Of a stretch of DNA of 60,485 nucleotides, positions 2,318 to 19,959 are shown one piece after another. The position numbers were made by a program, and so were the translations under genes. This DNA is from a virus (Duplodnaviria > Heunggongvirae > Uroviricota > Caudoviricetes). Where the stretch lies: IMG/VR virus record IMGVR_UViG_2671181056_000013, positions 1-60,485 of that record; one strand, written 5' to 3'. Each line of letters starts with the position of its first letter. The stretch's first letter is position 1. The notes under the pieces are model-generated. The model was not told where the DNA came from, did not search any database, and worked only from the letters and a program-made list of their open reading frames with translations.

Positions 2318-2561
2318 TGAAGGTTATGCCTGGATAGAATGAGTGCATAACAAACTATAGCTGTACATCCACTACACAGCCACGAAGGATGATAATGAAG
2401 CATTGCCTGTATGATCAATCGACTTTGTAGAGTTTCGGACGAAGGTCCGCAGAATATTCGCAGTATTAAATAAGTGTTCATTAATGCGGCAAAAACTAAT
2501 ACACCGCATCAATGTAACATCTCTGCGGTGTATGAAGAATAACCAGAATGGTTAATAGGCG

Positions 2562-3671
2562 TTAGACCGCGCGGAAGGAAATCTCGCCTGGAATGACTTC
2601 ACCCTGCCAGTAGAGCTGAGCTGCAACGCGGTCAGCCAGCTGGCGGTAGATAGCGGTAAATTCGCTCTCCGGACGGCTGATAACCGTTGGCGTGCCTTTA
2701 TCGAGATCCTCACGTAAGGAGATGTGTAACGGCATCTGCCCCAGCAGCTGTGTGTGGTATTTTTCAGCCAGTTTCTCTGCACCACCGGTACCGAAAATCG
2801 GTTCATGGTGACCACAGTTACTGCAAATATGCACACTCATGTTCTCGACAATACCAAGCACCGGAACCTCGACTTTCTCGAACATCACAATGCCTTTTTT
2901 CGCATCGATCAAAGCGATGTCCTGCGGGGTGGTGACCACGACTGCACCAGTTACTGGAATGTTTTGCGCCAGCGTCAATTGAATGTCACCGGTGCCTGGC
3001 GGCATATCAAGCACCAGATAGTCGAGATCCGGCCACAAGGTTTCCTGCAACATCTGCATTAACGCCTTGCTCGCCATCGGTCCACGCCACACCATCGCAT
3101 TGTCGTCAGTGACCAGATAACCAATTGAATTGGTTGCCAGGCCATGAGACATAATCGGTGCCATATGGGTACCGTCCGGCGAAGTTGGACGCTGATTTTC
3201 TGCGCCCAGCATGGTGGGAATTGATGGGCCGTAGATATCGGCGTCCAGAATGCCGACTTTCGCCCCTTCCGCCGCCAGTGCCAGCGCCAGGTTTACCGCC
3301 GTGGAGGATTTACCCACGCCGCCTTTACCGGAACTGACCGCAATGATGTTCTTCACACCATTAATACCCGGCTGATTCTTCACGCGTTTTAAGGTGGCGA
3401 TATTGTGCGACAGTTTCCAGTCGATAGCTTTCGCCCCGGTGATACGCAGCAGTTCGGCGCTACATTGCTCTTTTAACTCTTCAAACGCGCTATGCCAGAC
3501 GAATGGCATAACCAGTTCCACATGCAACGTGTCGTCCATCCAGGCGACATGGTGCAACGCGTTCAGCGTGGTGAGGTTATGCTTCAGGGTTGGGTGCTGA
3601 AAATTGGCCAGTGTCCCGGCGACCATTGCGCGCAAGGCTTCTGGTGATTTGGCCTGGGATTGTTCGTTCAT
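2562..3671 (-). CDS. mrp: Fe-S cluster carrier ATPase Mrp/ApbC, copy 1
   Basis: P-loop GKGGVGKS and CxxC motif. Start set at MNEQSQ (369 aa); the ORF track begins 10 codons further upstream. Confidence 0.9.
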   Translation of the reverse strand: MNEQSQAKSPEALRAMVAGTLANFQHPTLKHNLTTLNALHHVAWMDDTLHVELVMPFVWHSAFEELKEQCSAELLRITGAKAIDWKLSHNIATLKRVKNQPGINGVKNIIAVSSGKGGVGKSSTAVNLALALAAEGAKVGILDADIYGPSIPTMLGAENQRPTSPDGTHMAPIMSHGLATNSIGYLVTDDNAMVWRGPMASKALMQMLQETLWPDLDYLVLDMPPGTGDIQLTLAQNIPVTGAVVVTTPQDIALIDAKKGIVMFEKVEVPVLGIVENMSVHICSNCGHHEPIFGTGGAEKLAEKYHTQLLGQMPLHISLREDLDKGTPTVISRPESEFTAIYRQLADRVAAQLYWQGEVIPGEISFRAV

Positions 3672-3802
3672 CCCGACTCCTTTTTTGTATAGATAAACCA
3701 TCAGCTGATAGTTTACCTGAAGAATATAGAGAAGTACTTACTTAACATTTTCCCATTTGGTACTATCTAACCCCTTTTCACTATTAAGAAGTAATGCCTA
3801 CT

Positions 3803-5221
3803 ATGACTCAAGTCGCGAAGAAAATTCTGGTGACGTGCGCACTGCCGTACGCTAACGGCTCAATCCACCTCGGCCATATGCTGGAGCACATCCAGGCTGA
3901 TGTCTGGGTCCGTTACCAGCGAATGCGCGGCCACGAGGTCAACTTCATCTGCGCCGACGATGCCCACGGTACACCGATCATGCTGAAAGCTCAGCAGCTT
4001 GGTATCACCCCGGAGCAGATGATTGGCGAAATGAGTCAGGAGCATCAGACTGATTTCGCAGGCTTTAACATCAGCTATGACAACTATCACTCGACGCACA
4101 GCGAAGAGAACCGCCAGTTGTCAGAACTTATCTACTCTCGCCTGAAAGAGAACGGTTTTATTAAAAACCGCACCATCTCTCAGCTGTACGATCCGGAAAA
4201 AGGCATGTTCCTGCCGGACCGTTTTGTGAAAGGCACCTGCCCGAAATGTAAATCCCCGGATCAATACGGCGATAACTGCGAAGTCTGCGGCGCGACCTAC
4301 AGCCCGACTGAATTGATCGAGCCGAAATCGGTGGTTTCTGGCGCTACGCCGGTAATGCGTGATTCTGAACACTTCTTCTTTGATCTGCCCTCTTTCAGCG
4401 AAATGTTGCAGGCATGGACCCGCAGCGGTGCGTTGCAGGAGCAGGTGGCAAATAAAATGCAGGAGTGGTTTGAATCCGGCCTGCAACAGTGGGATATCTC
4501 CCGCGACGCGCCATACTTTGGTTTTGAAATTCCGAACGCGCCGGGCAAATATTTCTACGTCTGGCTGGACGCACCGATTGGCTACATGGGTTCTTTCAAG
4601 AATCTGTGCGACAAGCGCAGCGACAGCGTAAGCTTCGATGAATACTGGAAGAAAGACTCCACCGCCGAGCTGTACCACTTCATCGGTAAAGATATTGTTT
4701 ACTTCCACAGCCTGTTCTGGCCTGCCATGCTGGAAGGCAGCAACTTCCGCAAGCCGACCAACCTGTTTGTTCATGGCTATGTGACGGTGAACGGCGCAAA
4801 GATGTCCAAGTCTCGCGGCACCTTTATTAAAGCCAGCACCTGGCTGAATCATTTTGACGCTGACAGCCTGCGTTACTACTACACTGCGAAACTCTCTTCG
4901 CGCATTGATGATATCGATCTCAACCTGGAGGATTTCGTTCAGCGTGTGAATGCCGATATCGTGAACAAAGTGGTTAACCTGGCCTCTCGTAATGCGGGCT
5001 TTATCAACAAGCGTTTTGACGGCGTGCTGGCAAGCGAACTGGCTGACCCGCAGTTGTACAAAACCTTCACTGATGCCGCTGAAGTGATTGGTGAAGCGTG
5101 GGAAAGCCGCGAATTTGGTAAAGCAGTGCGCGAAATCATGGCGCTGGCTGATCTGGCTAACCGCTATGTCGAAGTGGCCTTAAACAATTTGTTTTCTACC
5201 TTTTCTTGTTCGAGAAAATAA
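3803..5221 (+). pseudogene. metG: metG 5' portion (about 456 codons) fused in frame to phage-like sequence, ending after 16 unrelated codons
   Basis: Class I aaRS motif HLGH and KMSKS are present. MetG-like sequence stops at 5172/5173 where the full copy continues ...RYVDEQAPW; here it reads ...[19 protein letters not shown]. Confidence 0.8.
5183..5220 (+). promoter_or_regulatory. about 40-bp phage promoter-like element, copy 1 of 3 (AAACAATTTGTTTTCTACCTTTT...GAGAAAATAA)
   Basis: A 23-nt stretch is identical to 12203-12225 and near-identical to 16091-16113; possible -35 TTGTTT and -10 GAAAAT/GATAAT. Confidence 0.4.
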
Positions 5222-5253
5222 CGTTCCTTTGTCTGGTGCTATGTACCGATCAG

Positions 5254-5300
5254 TTGCACTGAGTGAGCTTCTTTCATGTATACTGTGTAAATGAACAGTA
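5254..5300 (+). promoter_or_regulatory. sigma70-like promoter (TTGCAC ... TATACT) overlapped by a LexA/SOS box TACTGTGTAAATGAACAGTA
   Basis: CTGT-N8-ACAG palindrome at 5281-5300, matching the LexA consensus at 16 of 20 positions by my alignment, about 17 nt upstream of the umuD'-like start. Confidence 0.65.
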
Positions 5301-5316
5301 TTGAGGGCAAAACGCT

Positions 5317-5706
5317 ATGGGCTTCCCTTCTCCTGCGGCGGATTATGCTGAGAGCCGTATTTCTCTTGATCAGCAGATAATTAGACATCCTTCAGCGACC
5401 TACTTCATGAGAGCAGCTGATAGTCATCATCGTGAGGGAATATTACAGGGTGCATTGCTGGTGGTTGATTCCTCACTTACCCCGGTTGATGGTTCTCTGC
5501 TTGTATGCGCTCTGGATGGGGAATATCGCGTAAAAAGATACCGGAAGTCTCCACGTCAGCATCTGGAGGATTTAAGAACCGGTAAGAAGGAAGCATTGCC
5601 AAAGGATGACGATGGATGCACGGGCAGCAATGCCGTGTTTGGTGTGATCACTCACATTATCAACGACGCAAGAAGTGGCGAGTTTGATGATTGTCCTGTG
5701 ATGTAG
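5317..5706 (+). CDS. UmuD'-like S24 peptidase-family protein, natively starting at the position equivalent to UmuD Gly25
   Basis: MGFPSPAADY...HPSATYF...VFGVITHII aligns with E. coli UmuD from the Cys24/Gly25 cleavage site onward. Good RBS GAGGG; in-frame TGA at 5302-5304 excludes a longer N-terminus. Confidence 0.8.
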   Translation: MGFPSPAADYAESRISLDQQIIRHPSATYFMRAADSHHREGILQGALLVVDSSLTPVDGSLLVCALDGEYRVKRYRKSPRQHLEDLRTGKKEALPKDDDGCTGSNAVFGVITHIINDARSGEFDDCPVM

Positions 5707-5718
5707 GAGAACTGATTA

Positions 5719-5745
5719 GGCGGTGCAATGCACCGCCTTTTTATC
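5719..5745 (+). terminator. intrinsic terminator (GGCGGTGCA-A-TGCACCGCC plus T-run)
   Basis: Perfect 9-bp stem followed by TTTTT, placed between the convergent umuD'-like gene and mrp copy B. Confidence 0.6.
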
Positions 5746-6844
5746 ACACTGCGCGGAATGCGATTTCGCCAGGTATTACTTCACCTTGCCAATACATTTG
5801 GGCAGCAACGCGATCTGCGAGGTCACGATAAATAGCCGTAAATTCGCTATCTGGACGACTAATAACGGTTGGTGTTCCGTTATCCAGATCTTCACGAAGA
5901 GAGATATGAAGTGGCATTTGGCCTAACAACTGCGTGTTGTATTTCTCGGCCAGTTTCTGTGCTCCACCGGTGCCAAAAATTGGCTCGTGATGACCGCAGT
6001 TACTGCAAATATGCACACTCATGTTTTCAACGATACCCAGTACCGGCACTTCGACTTTTTCGAACATCACAATGCCTTTCTTCGCATCGATCAGCGCGAT
6101 GTCTTGCGGCGTAGTTACCACAACCGCACCAGTTACAGGAATGTTCTGCGCCAGCGTCAATTGAATATCACCAGTGCCCGGTGGCATATCGAGAACGAGA
6201 TAGTCCAGATCAGGCCACAGTGTTTCCTGCAACATCTGCATCAGCGCCTTGCTCGCCATCGGTCCACGCCACACCATTGCATTGTCATCGGTGACCAGAT
6301 AACCAATAGAGTTGGTTGCCAGGCCATGAGACATGATAGGTGCCATGTGAGTACCGTCCGGTGAGGTTGGACGTTGGTTTTCCGCGCCCAGCATGGTTGG
6401 AATTGATGGACCATAGATATCGGCATCCAAAATACCAACTTTCGCACCTTCAGCAGCCAAAGCCAGTGCCAAGTTTACTGCTGTGGAGGATTTACCCACG
6501 CCGCCCTTGCCTGAGCTGACGGCGATAATGTTCTTAACGCCATTAATGCCTGGTTGGTTTTTGACGCGCTTAAGCGTGGCAATGTTGTACGACAGCTTCC
6601 AGTCAATAGCCTTTGCGCCAGTGATACGGAGCAGATCACCACTACATTGCTCTTTCAGGTCTTCAAAAGGCTTATTCCACACGAAAGGCATGATTAGTTC
6701 GACATGCAGTGTGTCATCCATCAACGCAACATGGTGTAACGCTTTAAGCGTAGTCAAGTTGTGTTTCAGGGTTGGGTGCTGAAAATTAGCCAGCGTACCG
6801 GCTACCATTGCTCTCAGGGCATCCGGCGATTTGGACTCGCTCAT
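5744..6844 (-). CDS. mrp: Mrp/ApbC, divergent copy B
   Basis: 366 aa with the same motifs as copy 1, but many synonymous and some non-synonymous differences; its flanking non-coding DNA is unrelated to copy 1. Confidence 0.85.
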   Translation of the reverse strand: MSESKSPDALRAMVAGTLANFQHPTLKHNLTTLKALHHVALMDDTLHVELIMPFVWNKPFEDLKEQCSGDLLRITGAKAIDWKLSYNIATLKRVKNQPGINGVKNIIAVSSGKGGVGKSSTAVNLALALAAEGAKVGILDADIYGPSIPTMLGAENQRPTSPDGTHMAPIMSHGLATNSIGYLVTDDNAMVWRGPMASKALMQMLQETLWPDLDYLVLDMPPGTGDIQLTLAQNIPVTGAVVVTTPQDIALIDAKKGIVMFEKVEVPVLGIVENMSVHICSNCGHHEPIFGTGGAQKLAEKYNTQLLGQMPLHISLREDLDNGTPTVISRPDSEFTAIYRDLADRVAAQMYWQGEVIPGEIAFRAV

Positions 6845-7001
6845 CCCGTCTCCTTTATTTTAATTTGCGCAATTGTCGCCTTGTAGTGTACTCCAGCTAC
6901 GACATTTAATCATTTATGAGAAATGCTGTTATCACATGGCAGACATAAGGCCATTTTGTTACTATCAAGCCCCTTTTCACTACAAAGAAGTAATGCCTAC
7001 T

Positions 7002-8837
7002 ATGACCCAAGTCGCGAAGAAAATTCTGGTGACGTGCGCGCTGCCGTACGCTAACGGCTCAATCCACCTCGGCCATATGCTGGAGCACATCCAGGCTGAT
7101 GTCTGGGTTCGTTACCAGCGAATGCGCGGCCACGAGGTTAATTTCATCTGTGCCGACGATGCCCACGGTACGCCAATCATGCTGAAAGCACAGCAGCTTG
7201 GTATCACACCGGAACAGATGATTGGCGAAATGAGTCAGGAACATCAGACTGATTTCGCAGGCTTTAACATCAGCTATGACAACTATCACTCGACGCACAG
7301 CGAAGAGAACCGTCAGTTGTCCGAGCTTATCTACTCTCGCCTGAAAGAAAACGGTTTTATTAAAAACCGCACCATCTCACAGCTGTACGATCCGGAAAAA
7401 TGCATGTTCCTGCCGGACCGTTTTGTAAAAGGCACCTGCCCGAAATGTAAATCCCCGGATCAATACGGCGATAACTGCGAAGTCTGCGGCGCGACCTACA
7501 GCCCGACTGAACTGATCGAGCCGAAATCGGTGGTTTCTGGCGCTACGCCGGTAATGCGTGATTCTGAACACTTCTTCTTTGATCTGCCCTCTTTCAGCGA
7601 AATGTTGCAGGCATGGACCCGCAGCGGTGCGTTGCAGGAGCAGGTGGCAAATAAAATGCAGGAGTGGTTTGAATCCGGCCTGCAACAGTGGGATATCTCC
7701 CGCGACGCGCCATACTTTGGTTTTGAAATTCCGAACGCGCCGGGCAAATATTTCTACGTCTGGCTGGACGCACCGATTGGCTACATGGGTTCTTTCAAGA
7801 ATCTGTGCGACAAGCGCAGCGACAGCGTAAGCTTCGATGAATACTGGAAGAAAGACTCCACCGCCGAGCTGTACCACTTCATCGGTAAAGATATTGTTTA
7901 CTTCCACAGCCTGTTCTGGCCTGCCATGCTGGAAGGCAGCAACTTCCGCAAGCCGACCAACCTGTTTGTTCATGGCTATGTGACGGTGAACGGCGCAAAG
8001 ATGTCCAAGTCTCGCGGCACCTTTATTAAAGCCAGCACCTGGCTGAATCATTTTGACGCTGACAGCCTGCGTTACTACTACACTGCGAAACTCTCTTCGC
8101 GCATTGATGATATCGATCTCAACCTGGAGGATTTCGTTCAGCGTGTGAATGCCGATATCGTGAACAAAGTGGTTAACCTGGCCTCTCGTAATGCGGGCTT
8201 TATCAACAAGCGTTTTGACGGCGTGCTGGCAAGCGAACTGGCTGACCCGCAGTTGTACAAAACCTTCACTGATGCCGCTGAAGTGATTGGTGAAGCGTGG
8301 GAAAGCCGCGAATTTGGTAAAGCAGTGCGCGAAATCATGGCGCTGGCTGATCTGGCTAACCGCTATGTCGACGAGCAGGCTCCGTGGGTGGTGGCAAAAC
8401 AGGAAGGCCGCGATGCCGACCTGCAGGCAATTTGCTCAATGGGCATAAACCTGTTCCGCGTGCTGATGACTTACCTGAAGCCGGTACTGCCGAAACTGAC
8501 CGAGCGCGCAGAAGCATTCCTCAATACAGAACTGACCTGGGATGGTATCCAGCAACCGCTGCTGGGCCACAAAGTGAATCCGTTCAAAGCGCTGTATAAC
8601 CGCATCGATATGAAGCAGGTTGAAGCACTGGTGGAAGCGTCTAAAGAAGAAGTGAAAGCAGCTGCCGCGCCAGTTACTGGCCCACTGGCAGATGATCCGA
8701 TTCAGGAAACCATCACCTTTGACGACTTCGCAAAAGTTGACCTGCGCGTGGCGCTGATCGAAAACGCAGAGTTTGTTGAAGGTTCTGACAAACTGCTGCG
8801 CCTGATGCGGTGTATGAAGAATAACCAGAATGGTTAA
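7002..8837 (+). CDS. metG: methionyl-tRNA synthetase copy B, truncated after about codon 601 and read through into 10 junction codons
   Basis: Near-identical to the other metG copies except scattered SNPs. Junction at 8805/8806 joins metG to sequence equal to 2524 onward. The ORF-track N-terminal extension (6873-6992) is treated as artefact. Confidence 0.8.
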
Positions 8838-8843
8838 TAGGCG

Positions 8844-9953
8844 TTAGACCGCGCGGAAGGAAATCTCGCCTGGAATGACTTCACCCTGCCAGTAGAGCTG
8901 AGCTGCAACGCGGTCAGCCAGCTGGCGGTAGATAGCGGTAAATTCGCTCTCCGGACGGCTGATAACCGTTGGCGTGCCTTTATCGAGATCCTCACGTAAG
9001 GAGATGTGTAACGGCATCTGCCCCAGCAGCTGTGTGTGGTATTTTTCAGCCAGTTTCTCTGCACCACCGGTACCGAAAATCGGTTCATGGTGACCACAGT
9101 TACTGCAAATATGCACACTCATGTTCTCGACAATACCAAGCACCGGAACCTCGACTTTCTCGAACATCACAATGCCTTTTTTCGCATCGATCAAAGCGAT
9201 GTCCTGCGGGGTGGTGACCACGACTGCACCAGTTACTGGAATGTTTTGCGCCAGCGTCAATTGAATGTCACCGGTGCCTGGCGGCATATCAAGCACCAGA
9301 TAGTCGAGATCCGGCCACAAGGTTTCCTGCAACATCTGCATTAACGCCTTGCTCGCCATCGGTCCACGCCACACCATCGCATTGTCGTCAGTGACCAGAT
9401 AACCAATTGAATTGGTTGCCAGGCCATGAGACATAATCGGTGCCATATGGGTACCGTCCGGCGAAGTTGGACGCTGATTTTCTGCGCCCAGCATGGTGGG
9501 AATTGATGGGCCGTAGATATCGGCGTCCAGAATGCCGACTTTCGCCCCTTCCGCCGCCAGTGCCAGCGCCAGGTTTACCGCCGTGGAGGATTTACCCACG
9601 CCGCCTTTACCGGAACTGACCGCAATGATGTTCTTCACACCATTAATACCCGGCTGATTCTTCACGCGTTTTAAGGTGGCGATATTGTGCGACAGTTTCC
9701 AGTCGATAGCTTTCGCCCCGGTGATACGCAGCAGTTCGGCGCTACATTGCTCTTTTAACTCTTCAAACGCGCTATGCCAGACGAATGGCATAACCAGTTC
9801 CACATGCAACGTGTCGTCCATCCAGGCGACATGGTGCAACGCGTTCAGCGTGGTGAGGTTATGCTTCAGGGTTGGGTGCTGAAAATTGGCCAGTGTCCCG
9901 GCGACCATTGCGCGCAAGGCTTCTGGTGATTTGGCCTGGGATTGTTCGTTCAT
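8844..9953 (-). CDS. mrp: Mrp/ApbC, copy 2 (identical to copy 1)
   Basis: Translation is identical to 2562-3701; the DNA repeat runs from 8806, offset 6282 from copy 1. Confidence 0.9.
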   Translation of the reverse strand: MNEQSQAKSPEALRAMVAGTLANFQHPTLKHNLTTLNALHHVAWMDDTLHVELVMPFVWHSAFEELKEQCSAELLRITGAKAIDWKLSHNIATLKRVKNQPGINGVKNIIAVSSGKGGVGKSSTAVNLALALAAEGAKVGILDADIYGPSIPTMLGAENQRPTSPDGTHMAPIMSHGLATNSIGYLVTDDNAMVWRGPMASKALMQMLQETLWPDLDYLVLDMPPGTGDIQLTLAQNIPVTGAVVVTTPQDIALIDAKKGIVMFEKVEVPVLGIVENMSVHICSNCGHHEPIFGTGGAEKLAEKYHTQLLGQMPLHISLREDLDKGTPTVISRPESEFTAIYRQLADRVAAQLYWQGEVIPGEISFRAV

Positions 9954-10084
9954 CCCGACTCCTTTTTTGTATAGATAAACCATCAGCTGATAGTTTACCT
10001 GAAGAATATAGAGAAGTACTTACTTAACATTTTCCCATTTGGTACTATCTAACCCCTTTTCACTATTAAGAAGTAATGCCTACT

Positions 10085-12118
10085 ATGACTCAAGTCGCGA
10101 AGAAAATTCTGGTGACGTGCGCACTGCCGTACGCTAACGGCTCAATCCACCTCGGCCATATGCTGGAGCACATCCAGGCTGATGTCTGGGTCCGTTACCA
10201 GCGAATGCGCGGCCACGAGGTCAACTTCATCTGCGCCGACGATGCCCACGGTACACCGATCATGCTGAAAGCTCAGCAGCTTGGTATCACCCCGGAGCAG
10301 ATGATTGGCGAAATGAGTCAGGAGCATCAGACTGATTTCGCAGGCTTTAACATCAGCTATGACAACTATCACTCGACGCACAGCGAAGAGAACCGCCAGT
10401 TGTCAGAACTTATCTACTCTCGCCTGAAAGAGAACGGTTTTATTAAAAACCGCACCATCTCTCAGCTGTACGATCCGGAAAAAGGCATGTTCCTGCCGGA
10501 CCGTTTTGTGAAAGGCACCTGCCCGAAATGTAAATCCCCGGATCAATACGGCGATAACTGCGAAGTCTGCGGCGCGACCTACAGCCCGACTGAATTGATC
10601 GAGCCGAAATCGGTGGTTTCTGGCGCTACGCCGGTAATGCGTGATTCTGAACACTTCTTCTTTGATCTGCCCTCTTTCAGCGAAATGTTGCAGGCATGGA
10701 CCCGCAGCGGTGCGTTGCAGGAGCAGGTGGCAAATAAAATGCAGGAGTGGTTTGAATCCGGCCTGCAACAGTGGGATATCTCCCGCGACGCGCCATACTT
10801 TGGTTTTGAAATTCCGAACGCGCCGGGCAAATATTTCTACGTCTGGCTGGACGCACCGATTGGCTACATGGGTTCTTTCAAGAATCTGTGCGACAAGCGC
10901 AGCGACAGCGTAAGCTTCGATGAATACTGGAAGAAAGACTCCACCGCCGAGCTGTACCACTTCATCGGTAAAGATATTGTTTACTTCCACAGCCTGTTCT
11001 GGCCTGCCATGCTGGAAGGCAGCAACTTCCGCAAGCCGACCAACCTGTTTGTTCATGGCTATGTGACGGTGAACGGCGCAAAGATGTCCAAGTCTCGCGG
11101 CACCTTTATTAAAGCCAGCACCTGGCTGAATCATTTTGACGCTGACAGCCTGCGTTACTACTACACTGCGAAACTCTCTTCGCGCATTGATGATATCGAT
11201 CTCAACCTGGAGGATTTCGTTCAGCGTGTGAATGCCGATATCGTGAACAAAGTGGTTAACCTGGCCTCTCGTAATGCGGGCTTTATCAACAAGCGTTTTG
11301 ACGGCGTGCTGACAAGCGAACTGGCTGACCCGCAACTGTACAAAACCTTTACTGATGCCGCTGAAGTGATTGGCGAAGCATGGGAAAGCCGCGAATTTGG
11401 TAAAGCTATCCGTGAAATCATGGCATTGGCTGACCTGGCTAATCGCTATGTCGATGAACAGGCTCCGTGGGTGGTGGCGAAGCAGGAAGGTCGCGATGCA
11501 GATCTGCAGGCGATTTGCTCTATGGGCATTAACCTGTTCCGCGTGCTGATGACGTACCTGAAACCGGTACTGCCGAAACTGACTGAACGTGCAGAAGCAT
11601 TCCTGAATACAGAACTGACCTGGGATGGTATCCAGCAACCGCTTCTGGGCCATAAAGTGAATCCGTTCAAGGCACTGTATAACCGTATCGATATGAAACA
11701 GGTGGAAGCACTGGTGGAAGCATCCAAAGAAGAAGTGAAAGCCACAGCTGCACCGGTAACTGGCCCACTGGCTGACGAACCGATTCAGGAAACCATCACC
11801 TTTGACGACTTCGCCAAAGTTGACCTGCGTGTGGCGCTGATTGAAAACGCGGAGTTTGTCGAAGGTTCTGACAAACTGCTTCGCCTGACGCTGGATCTCG
11901 GTGGTGAAAAGCGTAATGTCTTCTCAGGCATCCGTTCCGCTTATCCAGATCCACAGGCACTGATTGGTCGTCACACCATTATGGTGGCTAACCTGGCACC
12001 ACGTAAAATGCGCTTCGGTATCTCTGAAGGCATGGTGATGGCTGCCGGTCCTGGCGGGAAAGATATCTTCCTGTTAAGCCCGGATGCTGGTGCTAAACCT
12101 GGCCACCAGGTTAAGTAA
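10085..12118 (+). CDS. metG: methionyl-tRNA synthetase, full length (677 aa)
   Basis: Complete ORF including the C-terminal tRNA-binding domain. The 3' third differs at many sites from copies 1 and B. Confidence 0.9.
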
Positions 12119-12140
12119 TTAAACAACCTCTCTTCGCAAT

Positions 12141-15057: not shown

Positions 15058-15211
15058 GCCCAACCAAAGCCAGCATTGCTGGCTTAACTTCATCTGTAGC
15101 CGCAGGGAAGAACCTGCATATCGCTCATGCGCCTGATCAATATGCTTTGTAGCCGTTTTCTTACTGGTATTATTTACGCCATTGAGAAAACAAGTTGTTT
15201 ACGGAGTTGTG

Positions 15212-17370: not shown

Positions 17371-17379
17371 CTGAGAAGA

Positions 17380-17402
17380 GGGCCAGTAACGGCCCTTTCT
17401 CT
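17380..17402 (+). terminator. intrinsic terminator (GGGCC-AGTAAC-GGCCC plus T-run)
   Basis: Hairpin and TTTCTCT 10 nt after the stop. Confidence 0.65.
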
Positions 17403-17417
17403 ATAGCCACCAGATGC

Positions 17418-17580
17418 CGCAGGGAAATTTTCAGAAACGGCGAGGAACGTATTCATGAACCGACGGGGAACGGCCAGGATTTTTTCGGGAAACGGCTGCA
17501 TTCGCCTTTATGTAGAAAAAACATCGGGAAGCTGGTGGAATCCAACCAGCGGTTGTCGGACAGGTGAGCGGGGAAAATTA
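17418..17580. repeat. iteron-like direct repeats (GGGAAAMGG family), set 2
   Basis: CAGGGAAATTTTCAGAAACGG, ACGGGGAACGGC, TCGGGAAACGGC, TCGGGAAGCTGG; closely resembles set 1 including the GATTTT...CGGGAAACGG units. Confidence 0.5.
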
Positions 17581-17962
17581 TGATGACTTTCGTCGCCTGA
17601 GACATCCAGATTTCTTTCGTAGCGTAATCGCATACGTGATTAAGTGGTGTGATTATGTGAAAAATCACGCGCACATAATACGCGAGCGGATACGGAACAA
17701 AACAAAATGCCGATCCGCGCCGACAAATAAACGCGGATCACATAGCAAGACTAAAAGCCAATGATTAACTATGCGCTATAGCGCAATATAACGCGTTTTA
17801 AGCGCGTTAATGTGTTAAGTAATGGGTATGTACTGGCAAGGATATAAAAGCGCGTCTATGGCGTTATTTTGGCGCTTATTTTTATGTTGTTGGAGTGAGT
17901 CAAAGACAATAAAAAACGCGCCATCATTGGCGCGTTATGGTGGGAGTATTGGAAACGAAAAA

Positions 17963-17997
17963 AGCGCCCACTATGGGCGCTATTGTTTTTATTTTTC
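17963..17997 (+). terminator. GC hairpin AGCGCCCA-CTA-TGGGCGCT plus T-run; inverted partner copy at 18458-18478
   Basis: One of several GCGC-rich hairpins in the AT-rich 17760-18000 tract; the same 19-mer recurs as its reverse complement 495 bp away. Confidence 0.55.
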
Positions 17998-18216
17998 TAA
18001 GCGAATATTAAAACCAGCGTTTAAAAATTCTTGAAGCATTAAAGTAACATCTGCTTCATTGATTCCTGCGCGCGCTCTATGTTCTACGTCATTGATGTTT
18101 ATTTTAAACGTTGTTTCATCAACCACTTCAGAACTTAGAGCATATCCAGCTAAACCAGCAATATCATAAACAAGAGTATGATTATTGATATTTACGCCAG
18201 AGATGAAAATAACCAT
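17989..18216 (-). CDS. hypothetical small protein (75 aa)
   Basis: Second ORF of a two-gene minus-strand cassette lying between the inverted GC hairpins; AT-rich. Confidence 0.45.
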   Translation of the reverse strand: MVIFISGVNINNHTLVYDIAGLAGYALSSEVVDETTFKININDVEHRARAGINEADVTLMLQEFLNAGFNIRLEK

Positions 18217-18236
18217 GATTAAGCTCCTTAAAAAAA

Positions 18237-18440
18237 TTAAATAGAATTATGAAGTTTTCCGATTAATGCGCTTAAACGTAAGTATTCACGTTTACGCTTG
18301 CAATCTCGTTTGCTGTTAAGCAAATCAGAAAACGTAAAATTTAATTGGTCGCGTTGCGCGATTAAATCATTGATTAATTCTAGTTTATAAGCGCGATACT
18401 TTGCGCGATATTCCGCGCGGATCTTGTCATAGCTGACCAT
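18237..18440 (-). CDS. hypothetical small basic protein (67 aa, K/R-rich)
   Basis: AAGGAG RBS 9 nt upstream, immediately preceded by the hairpin 18458-18478. Confidence 0.45.
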   Translation of the reverse strand: MVSYDKIRAEYRAKYRAYKLELINDLIAQRDQLNFTFSDLLNSKRDCKRKREYLRLSALIGKLHNSI

Positions 18441-18489
18441 TTTTTAAAGCTCCTTTAAAGCGCCCATAGTGGGCGCTTGATTCCATTAA

Positions 18490-19140
18490 TTACGCTTTGA
18501 AAGCGTCAGCTAGATAATTGTAGAAATCATTCTTGATAAAGCGATATTGCTGTGTACCAGCTTTGGCGCTTCCCATTCCTTTGACTTTCTCAACAAGTCC
18601 GAGACGTTCGCAAAGATTGATTAGCTGGTTAGCTTGAGTATAGCCAGCGTCCAATTTAATTTCACACGCTTTTTTAGCTTCATTCATTAAATCGAAAACA
18701 GCGCCATTCGTGAACGTGTCGATCTCGTCGTTAATCATATCGATTAAAGCGAATACACGAGATCCAGACATATCAGCGACGGAATAAACACATTTTCCAG
18801 CTTTAATTGATTTAACCAGATAAACCAGTTTTTCCAGTGAATAACTATTAGTCATAGCGTCACGAAAAAATACTTCTGGCGCTTGTTTGCTTGCTTTAAT
18901 CGCATAGTAGAAAACAGAGCATAATTTTTCGTCTTCTACAGCGTTTACGACGTTGTTGATGAAGTAAGCAAGTTTAGTGGTCGCAGCTTGCATATTTGCT
19001 TTGTCTGCTTTAGTGTGCGTACCATTTTTATAATGTTCGTTATATGTTTGAGTTGCCAGATCTGCTTTTTCGCGCAGTTCGTCGGATACAATAGATGCAG
19101 CTTCAATGATGGACTTTTTAGAAATGATAATGTTAGCCAT
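18490..19140 (-). CDS. hypothetical protein (216 aa)
   Basis: ORF with a long AT-rich upstream region (19141-19400). Confidence 0.6.
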   Translation of the reverse strand: MANIIISKKSIIEAASIVSDELREKADLATQTYNEHYKNGTHTKADKANMQAATTKLAYFINNVVNAVEDEKLCSVFYYAIKASKQAPEVFFRDAMTNSYSLEKLVYLVKSIKAGKCVYSVADMSGSRVFALIDMINDEIDTFTNGAVFDLMNEAKKACEIKLDAGYTQANQLINLCERLGLVEKVKGMGSAKAGTQQYRFIKNDFYNYLADAFKA

Positions 19141-19437
19141 GATTTTATTCCTTAGTATAAATATTAAAATTTAACTCAAGAAAGAAAGTGTTTTGCACTC
19201 GTTCCTGATGCGTTCAATTATCGATACGCGAAAAAAGATTGCAAGTGTTTTTTTAAGTTTTTTTGCAGGGATGAAAGTCCTAGAAATAAATGTTAGATCG
19301 TCGAGGGTGTTCCCTAAATAAATAATCGATTCCGGCTTTAGACCTTATATATTTATACGGGGTAGAATTGAAAGAGTATAAAATGAATGGCATGTAAAAT
19401 AATAACCGGACTTAGCCGGTTATTACCCTTATAGAAA

Positions 19438-19959
19438 TTAAAACGGAAGGATTCGTTCAACCCAATCGAAGAAAATAAGTATTTTTCTACCGTCTTCCAA
19501 CTTAAGTGTGACTAGACAGGCGTCAACGCCATCTGACGTTCCCTCAATTTCGCGACCGTCTGCCATGTAGACCCTTATAGATTTGCCGTTTTGGTAAGCC
19601 TGACGACATATCTTAAAAAAGTCACGACGTGATGGCTGATTAACCATCTGTTCATTGTTTAGCGTTAGTCGACCTGTGAATGAAGTGTCAACCTCTTCTA
19701 TGCCCGACTCAATTGTGCTAATGCGCTCAAGAGGGAGCCTTATACGATTTGTGTTGCTAAGCGGATCTGGTGTGAGGTTCAGCTTATTTCTTGCGCTCAA
19801 TAGCCCGTAGACATACATGCAAAACACTTGGCCGTCTTCGAGAGTGACTCTTACAGGAAATTTTGCACTCCGCCAGAAGAGCAAGGTACGTTCAGCATGT
19901 TCGTAGTCTCGCGGCCATACTTCAGCCGGTATGCCGTAGGTGATGTCCAATGTTCTCAT
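19438..19959 (-). CDS. hypothetical cytoplasmic protein (173 aa), translationally coupled to the upstream secreted protein
   Basis: ATGA overlap with the 19956-20549 ORF; a hairpin plus T-run terminator at 19396-19424 on the minus strand. Confidence 0.6.
   Translation of the reverse strand: MRTLDITYGIPAEVWPRDYEHAERTLLFWRSAKFPVRVTLEDGQVFCMYVYGLLSARNKLNLTPDPLSNTNRIRLPLERISTIESGIEEVDTSFTGRLTLNNEQMVNQPSRRDFFKICRQAYQNGKSIRVYMADGREIEGTSDGVDACLVTLKLEDGRKILIFFDWVERILPF

Follow-up and report, generated by a model that had tools for sequence, protein, structure and literature searches.

The stretch of DNA analysed here, hereafter called the window, comprises 60,485 nt of a virus of the Caudoviricetes (IMG/VR record IMGVR_UViG_2671181056_000013, positions 1 to 60,485), and its sequence identifies it as part of an SSU5-like phage-plasmid. 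Its minus strand carries three adjacent genes, termed C, B and A in reading order, with a short GC-rich hairpin after C and another one after A. We consider it likely that these hairpins, which resemble terminator stem-loops, mark the junctions of a slot in which small accessory genes are independently gained, lost and swapped. The comparison covers the window, 79 IMG/VR loci anchored on gene C and three annotated phages; 82 related loci were tabulated. In these loci gene C is followed by A, by B, by both or by neither, and the hairpins sit exactly at the junctions of presence, absence and replacement.

In the window, the hairpins consist of the 19-nt sequence AGCGCCCACTATGGGCGCT at 17963-17981 (plus strand) and its exact reverse complement AGCGCCCATAGTGGGCGCT at 18459-18477. 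These are the only two copies in the 60.5-kb window when up to 3 mismatches are allowed, and 100 shuffles give an expectation of 0.00. An initial annotation of the window, made from the sequence alone, had correctly noticed that the pair brackets two minus-strand open reading frames of 75 and 67 amino acids, although it placed the second copy at 18460-18478, and had taken the pair for the inverted terminal repeats of a mobile element. Each copy is by itself a hairpin, with an 8-bp stem formed by AGCGCCCA and TGGGCGCT (6 GC) and a 3-nt loop. Since the stem is the inverted repeat, the exact reverse complementarity of the two copies reduces to a difference in the 3-nt loop, CTA versus TAG. In direct orientation they are identical at 16 of 19 positions. 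The features of the region are the following:

17915-17936, minus strand: putative second, back-up intrinsic terminator hairpin, AACGCGCCA-ATGA-TGGCGCGTT, followed by TTTTATTGTC (17905-17914); -14.8 kcal/mol, z -3.5
17953-17981, minus strand: terminal 19-nt hairpin with T-tract; hairpin at 17963-17981, read on the minus strand as AGCGCCCA-TAG-TGGGCGCT; T-tract TTTTTCGTTT at 17953-17962
17989-18216, minus strand: gene A, allele type A1; 75 amino acids, isoelectric point (pI) 4.7, phrog_1585
18217-18236, minus strand: B-A junction TTTTTTTAAGGAGCTTAATC, the Shine-Dalgarno (SD) leader of A, without a hairpin
18237-18440, minus strand: gene B; 67 amino acids, pI 9.9, helical, phrog_6145
18441-18477, minus strand: proximal hairpin and leader of B; hairpin at 18459-18477, read on the minus strand as AGCGCCCA-CTA-TGGGCGCT; SD leader TTTAAAGGAGCTTTAAAAA at 18441-18458
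18490-19140, minus strand: gene C, the conserved anchor, with the slot at its 3' end; 216 amino acids, phrog_1513, 79 related loci
19217-19244, minus strand: candidate sigma-70 promoter TTGCAA-16-GATAAT, preceding C and matching the consensus only weakly

Contents and junctions of the slot

Ten loci are empty and have exactly one hairpin after C. Gene B alone, between two hairpins, occupies about 27 loci, including one (L050) whose proximal hairpin has a 4-nt loop. Gene A occurs in two allele classes, A1 and A2, which share about 47% protein identity, and in mosaics. It stands alone between two hairpins in 21 loci (17 with A2 and 4 with A1) and follows B in another 20 (17 with A2 and 3 with A1, the latter being the window type). 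Finally, two loci have three hairpins, one of which separates A1 from A2. Of the phages with names, Cyrano has A only and SSU5 has B only, with the hairpins in the same orientation in both, and PhiR41_1 has both genes. No inverted cassettes, which would be expected if the palindromic sites recombined in either register, were found, as A and B are never on the opposite strand in the 82 loci. The view of the initial annotation that the insert is variable cargo is borne out by these data, and comparison with the relatives that lack the insert places its boundaries at the hairpins. Its treatment of the two genes as one cassette is not, given that B alone and A alone are both common. Moreover, an obligate toxin-antitoxin pair, which it had suggested, is ruled out by the same counts, since the genes are not conserved as a pair (about 27 loci have only B, 21 have only A, 20 have the two together and 10 have neither gene).

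The empty sites run from the stop codon of C through the hairpin into TTTTTTCGTTTC and on to the second terminator, and TTTTTTCGTTTC also stands directly after the terminal hairpin when the site is occupied. After internal hairpins there are T(1-4)AAGGAG leaders. Because the sequence of the empty site is the one found past the terminal hairpin of occupied sites, the variable unit comprises an SD leader, a gene, about 10 nt and a hairpin, and it is located between a hairpin and its T-tract. Identity between the window and PhiR41_1 is 95-100% everywhere but in gene A, where it drops to 47-62% from the SD leader of A up to the hairpin; in the closest relatives, the A1 allele of the window is replaced by A2. 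The clearest evidence that the hairpins are junctions of module replacement comes from locus L045 and SSU5, whose sequences are 93-100% identical outside the interval bounded by the proximal and terminal hairpins, yet contain non-homologous cassettes within it (A1-like versus B). The same layout is seen in locus L078, whose gene C is 53% identical: it has a diverged B-like gene and a terminal hairpin identical to that of the window (3640-3960 of that locus). Its proximal hairpin has diverged to CGCGCTCC-ATAG-TGGGCGCG, and downstream there is a further hairpin, AGCGCCCA-CAAT-TGGGCGCT, with a 4-nt loop.

Across the hairpins of the relatives, majority identity is 97.5-99.5% in the stem compared with 63-84% in the flanking 25 nt, and the 8-bp stem is perfect in 140 of the 153 hairpins. 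Elsewhere in bacteria the stem was found, among the matches listed, as sporadic single copies in unrelated phyla, roughly as many as 16 fixed bases would give by chance in 596 Gb; among the same matches, copies in pairs were present only in SSU5-like contigs of Kluyvera. The idea that the hairpins belong to the REP/BIME family was dropped, as this family has tens to hundreds of copies per genome, compared with two in the window and, among the matches listed, only sporadic single copies elsewhere.

The region as a whole shares 90-94% identity with three Escherichia phage-plasmids (PhiR41_1, CMS-2020a and Cyrano) and about 80% with Salmonella phage SSU5. Of 5426 complete E. coli genomes, 223 contain the 661-bp segment around the cassette, in every case on a plasmid of approximately 100-115 kb. 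An annotated close relative, NZ_CP113488.1, has a typical SSU5-like gene set.

Probable operon structure and loop inversions

The arrangement of C, B and A is best explained as a minus-strand operon that ends in two tandem intrinsic terminators, and we regard this reading, taken as a whole, as probable. On the minus strand, the stop codon of C is followed by 12 nt, the proximal hairpin, TTTAAAGGAGCTTTAAAAA and the ATG of B; the TAA of B is followed by TTCTATTTAATTTTTTTAAGGAGCTTAATC and the ATG of A; and the TAG of A is followed by AAAAATAAAAACAAT, the terminal hairpin, TTTTTCGTTTCC, the second hairpin (AACGCGCCA-ATGA-TGGCGCGTT) and TTTTATTG. The terminal copy fits the structure of an intrinsic terminator, having an 8-bp stem with 6 GC and a 3-nt loop, followed by TTTTTCGTTT, at 7 nt past the stop codon of A. 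Moreover, the terminal hairpin is followed by T4-6 C(C)GTTT in 69 of 69 relatives. From these sequence features we infer that the terminal hairpin and its T-tract serve as the intrinsic terminator of the C-B-A operon. A T-rich run also follows on the plus strand, and the hairpin is probably bidirectional. The proximal hairpin has only TTT before AAAGGAG and corresponds to the definition of an intrinsic terminator in part only. Because no more than three T follow the stem, we judge it likely to be an attenuator or a stabilizer of an RNA end and not a full terminator. No promoter-like site was found in the 18-20 nt between hairpin and start codon, which contain an SD leader only, and the number of promoter-like matches in the region is not above the shuffled expectation.

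The initial annotation had described the cassette as AT-rich, which is correct for the interval itself: GC between the hairpins is 0.335, compared with 0.462 for the window, and ranks in the lowest 0.3% of windows of this size. The tract of low GC, however, extends beyond the hairpins. It runs through gene C (18490-19140, GC 0.386) and the promoter region to about 19437 (GC 0.32-0.39), and thus spans the whole three-gene operon and not just the insert. The further GCGC hairpins that had been reported are present as well, one at 17915-17936 (AACGCGCCA-TCAT-TGGCGCGTT, the second terminator read on the plus strand) and others within 17668-17876.

Loops were counted in the 69 loci that have two or more hairpins. 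With the proximal loop named first, 41 of these are CTA/CTA, 8 are CTA/TAG, 8 are TAG/CTA, 12 are of other types and none is TAG/TAG. Thus, inverted pairs account for 16 and direct CTA/CTA pairs for 41 of the 69 loci. The terminal copy in the window has the flipped (TAG) form, and the exact configuration of the window was otherwise found only in one identical IMG/VR contig (L004). PhiR41_1, the closest GenBank phage, has the loops reversed relative to the window, with TAG by the end of A on the plus strand and CTA at the other end. TAG differs from CTA at all three positions, yet its 17 occurrences exceed those of all single-substitution variants combined, and the rarer loops at the cassette hairpins also form reverse-complement pairs (TTA/TAA, TTG/CAA and TCA/TGA). 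The second terminator, which is not a cassette junction, flips alike (TCAT 17 and ATGA 14, TTGT 25 and ACAA 8, TTGA 3 and TCAA 1), and so do two unrelated hairpins compared with Cyrano (L002), at 15067-15085 (ATT versus AAT) and 17789-17809 (TTTTAAG versus CTTAAAT). Micro-inversion of the loop is thus a general feature of perfect hairpins in this lineage. Fitch parsimony on a neighbour-joining tree of gene C gives at least 10 flips for the proximal hairpin, at least 6 for the terminal one and at least 15 for the second terminator (at least 31 in total), numbers that transfer of flipped alleles could inflate, as the tree is built from a single gene in a recombining population. The flipped loops are found here and there among genomes that are almost identical.

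Template switching within a hairpin is known to leave, as its signature, a spacer that is exactly inverted between short and perfect inverted repeats, and it also homogenises the arms (Monttinen & Loytynoja 2022, PMC8794818; Abraham & Hazkani-Covo 2021, PMC8604942). The hairpins described here resemble these precedents in their perfect short arms, in a spacer that turns into its exact reverse complement while its length is kept, in recurrent and homoplasious events among close relatives, and in stems that stay perfect. They differ in the very high frequency, with about a quarter to a third of the alleles flipped, in their position in phage-plasmid terminator hairpins, and in that one flip gives the false look of terminal inverted repeats. 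Template-switch micro-inversion, which would take place during replication, is the mechanism that fits best to the recurrent flips. Events of the same kind are quasi-palindrome mutagenesis in E. coli and, in chloroplasts, minute inversions at hairpins. Judged by these sequence comparisons, the "inverted pair" of the window consists of two direct terminator copies, one of which has its loop flipped. The inverted terminal repeats postulated by the initial annotation are thereby not supported, as the copies are direct in 41 of the 69 relatives with two hairpins, and flipped the other way round in the closest GenBank phage. For annotation, this calls for caution, since a flipped loop makes direct terminator copies resemble the terminal inverted repeats of a mobile element.

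Mechanism, alternatives and related systems

In the mechanism that we propose, the 19-nt GC hairpin would be an operon terminator stem-loop, present once per junction of a variable slot at the 3' end of the operon. The terminal copy, which keeps its U-tract, would terminate transcription, and an internal copy with its SD leader would probably only attenuate or stabilise the 3' end of the upstream RNA. Small genes would enter, leave and replace each other as units of SD leader, gene and hairpin, exactly between a hairpin and its T-tract, and the identical hairpin together with the shared SD leader could provide short homology for unequal recombination or copy-choice between co-resident relatives. 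Such unequal exchange would give rise to empty, single, double and three-hairpin arrays; three-hairpin arrays and empty sites are the reciprocal products to be expected if the terminal hairpin of one genome paired with the proximal hairpin of another. The inverted relation in the window would be a micro-inversion of the 3-nt loop of the terminal copy, of a recurrent and probably neutral kind, produced by intra-hairpin template switching with the stems kept perfect. A and B would be independent accessory genes.

Several observations weigh against this mechanism. The junctions have no more than about 19-21 nt of homology in common, a short stretch for RecA-dependent recombination, and no recombinase was identified. 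In the mosaic locus L038, the breakpoints are in the flanks and not in the hairpins, one of them about 350 nt within C and the other about 550 nt beyond the slot on the downstream side, so that flanking homologous exchange moves cassettes too. Moreover, the B-A junction has no hairpin. The same leader, TTTAAGGAGCTTAATC, directly follows the hairpin in genomes that have A only, and an extra step must be assumed for the junction, either loss of a hairpin or recombination at the repeated SD leader. The possible inflation of the flip counts mentioned above is a further point. Finally, the homologues of A and C in Cyrano are not among the genes above background in the transcriptome table of the LF82 lysogen (PMC9928086), which argues, weakly, against a moron expressed in lysogeny.

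It is conceivable, although we think it unlikely, that the hairpins are selected terminators and nothing else, and that the slot contents are an old polymorphism spread by homologous recombination in the long flanks, together with occasional deletions. The flank breakpoints of L038 and the marginal homology of 19-21 nt are in line with this explanation, as is the co-divergence of B and C in the two main clades (97% versus 87%), which is the pattern of vertical descent. However, it leaves unexplained why the same 19-nt sequence is found at every junction, including the middle of the A1-A2 arrays, why a single copy is joined to the T-tract in empty sites, and why non-homologous cassettes change exactly at the hairpins in backgrounds that are 93-100% identical. 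Independent terminators of unrelated genes are not expected to be identical, the chance expectation being 0. We see less reason to believe that the hairpin is a dedicated recombination site, folded as single-stranded or cruciform DNA, at which an integron-attC-like system, an HUH/Y1-type enzyme or a structure-specific nuclease moves units of gene and hairpin and leaves the flips as its footprint. The slot does resemble an attC array in having one hairpin at each junction, a single copy in the empty site and up to three hairpins in a row; stems are far better kept than flanks even at 53% identity of gene C, and cassette swaps are bounded exactly by hairpins. Yet the element is a perfect 19-nt palindrome without the features of attC (57-141 nt, imperfect, with extrahelical bases and a GTTRRRY core), and in the terminal position it is a textbook intrinsic terminator. 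Flips are equally found at a terminator that is not a junction and at unrelated hairpins, so that no site-specific enzyme is needed for them, and in the annotated relative NZ_CP113488.1 neither an integrase nor a transposase lies near the slot, with no integrase annotated within about 25 kb on either side. In addition, the cassettes are never seen in other slots or inverted, and the stem elsewhere in bacteria amounts, among the matches listed, to sporadic single copies at roughly chance level. We would be rather surprised if SSU5-type phage-plasmids had, in the boldest form of this proposal, a miniature integron-like system in which a structure-specific enzyme moves promoter-less units of gene and hairpin at the end of the C operon, with the flips as a by-product.

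Least credible of all is a small mobile element or moron with terminal inverted repeats, whose two genes form a toxin-antitoxin or exclusion module and were inserted as one foreign AT-rich unit. This is the proposal of the initial annotation, and the comparative data already contradict it: 41 of 69 loci have the hairpins in direct orientation, PhiR41_1 has the reverse flip, each gene is commonly found without the other (A in 21 loci, B in about 27), and the pair is always in one slot and never elsewhere. What speaks for it in the window, namely hairpins that are exact reverse complements, an interval in the lowest percentile of GC, and one acidic and one basic protein, is joined by the empty site of relatives; but the low GC reaches over gene C and the promoter region, no target-site duplication is visible flanking the hairpins, and no toxin, antitoxin or defence family of Pfam, NCBIfam or PADLOC was detected for either protein. 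Two related candidates were rejected as well: a miniature inverted-repeat transposable element or insertion sequence, as the inverted orientation is not conserved, there is no target duplication and only one site is occupied, and a type II toxin-antitoxin module, as A and B are not co-conserved and have no recognisable toxin or antitoxin domain.

The closest analogue that we found are the promoter-early stem-loops (PeSLs) of T4-type phages, conserved intergenic stem-loop motifs that flank ORFans and at which indels or replacements between close relatives end (Arbiol et al. 2010, PMC2839356; Comeau et al. 2014, PMC4122927). By analogy, the hairpin linker would work like a PeSL, but it is not one. 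In both systems stem-loop terminator motifs flank small genes in variable regions, indels and replacements end within the motif, one genome has a single motif where another has a gene with motifs on both sides, and the cassettes carry their own regulatory signals, in our case a terminator and an SD leader. PeSLs, however, have a sigma-70-like early promoter, whereas the linker of the slot has none and consists of about 20 nt with an SD from hairpin to start codon. Its motif is of about 19-21 nt and thus about five times shorter than the approximately 100 nt of a PeSL; it is present in two copies in 60 kb at a single slot (two or three per slot), compared with about 50 dispersed PeSLs per genome, which are concentrated in hyperplastic regions; and its host is a temperate siphovirus phage-plasmid and not a T4-type phage. 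For PeSLs, excised mini-circles with one chimeric motif have been shown. Integron cassettes with attC share with the slot the promoter-less array of small genes, the palindromic element after each of them and the empty site that retains one such element. They differ from it in that the slot has a perfect 19-nt terminator hairpin without GTTRRRY, two cassettes at most, and exchange that is limited to one homologous slot. Morons of temperate phages, reportedly described by Juhala et al. and Hendrix et al. in 2000, are said to be small accessory genes between conserved genes, with deviant composition, a 3' terminator, and presence or absence among relatives, all of which is seen here as well. In contrast to morons, A and B have no detected promoter of their own and stand at the end of an operon, where read-through expression would be needed, and the homologues in Cyrano do not figure among the genes with reported expression in the lysogen.

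Thus, the slot is a tidy example of known processes, which are modular shuffling mediated by a terminator or linker and micro-inversion of hairpin loops. It illustrates the shuffling of small accessory genes concretely in a temperate phage-plasmid family that is present in about 4% of complete E. coli genomes. A very short terminator hairpin with an SD leader as module junction extends the PeSL idea beyond T4-type lytic phages to a smaller, promoter-less linker. Moreover, at least 31 micro-inversions at three hairpins in about 80 close relatives make up a dense natural data set, which could serve to gauge mutagenesis by template switching in the plasmids and phages of enterobacteria. In biological terms, the gain is limited pending the roles of A, B and C.

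Gene products and neighbouring regions

Scans of A, B and C against Pfam, PHROGs, NCBIfam and PADLOC gave only PHROG families without known function, and no toxin, antitoxin or defence family, as which the initial annotation had envisaged the two small proteins. It had correctly described the 67-residue product of B as basic; the 75-residue product of A is acidic. Homologues of B (phrog_6145) were found only in SSU5-like phage-plasmids of Enterobacteriaceae. The one of SSU5 (L003, 3991-4194) is annotated as "putative MIT family metal ion transporter CorA", a label that has spread to the description of PHROG 6145. We rejected it as spurious, since a soluble, basic and helical protein of 67 amino acids cannot be a CorA transporter. 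For C, the single-sequence AlphaFold model was unusable (predicted local distance difference test score, pLDDT, 52), and a sequence search of the PDB gave no match.

An exhaustive search with A recovered about 20 more small relatives of 33-48% identity. The protein is predicted to form a ferredoxin-like small domain (pLDDT 93), and a fold comparison of the predicted structure returned no informative structural neighbours. In a tblastn search of phage genomes, homologues of A were found in T5-like Providencia phages and in Pseudomonas Pakpunavirus, with different terminators, which indicates that the hairpin does not travel with the gene across phage families. The homologue in Providencia phage PR1 (L203, 1441-1762) is a stand-alone gene within the terminal repeat that has its own annotated promoter and terminator; the one in Pseudomonas phage PAK_P2 is at 1492-1725 of L204. 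In T5-type phages, the terminal repeat is the pre-early region. These locations hint at a function of the A family early in infection. Our best guess, as the A family is also present in the early regions of lytic phages, is a role in infection or host takeover, with A and B as independent accessory proteins that would act during infection.

Downstream of the operon, an intergenic region of about 600 bp (17371-17962) with convergent genes on either side is dense with GCGC-type hairpins, at 17668-17684, 17711-17740, 17789-17809 and 17852-17876, several of which have minus-strand T-tracts. Its identity to PhiR41_1 in 40-nt windows is 92-100%. The region may encode a small RNA or an array of protein-binding sites; an Rfam search gave no family at threshold and only sub-threshold matches to the terminator ends of small RNA models.

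Further away, at 2520-12120, the window contains a divergent pair of genes, encoding an ApbC/Mrp-type P-loop NTPase and a methionyl-tRNA synthetase (metG), in three tandem copies with a period of about 3.1-3.2 kb. In 300-nt blocks, identity is 100% between copies 1 and 3 and 70-94% for copy 2, and metG is truncated or altered in two of its copies (475 and 654 compared with 680 amino acids). The close relative plasmid has one metG-apbC pair only. The triplication may be an effect of assembly, or host-derived genes may truly have been amplified on the phage-plasmid.

Upstream of the C operon, at 19438-19959 on the minus strand, lies a gene for a full-length homologue of FljA, the repressor of phase-1 flagellin in Salmonella (Pfam Flag1_repress, E 1e-68). 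It is missing from at least one close relative and is an odd host-interaction gene for a phage-plasmid.

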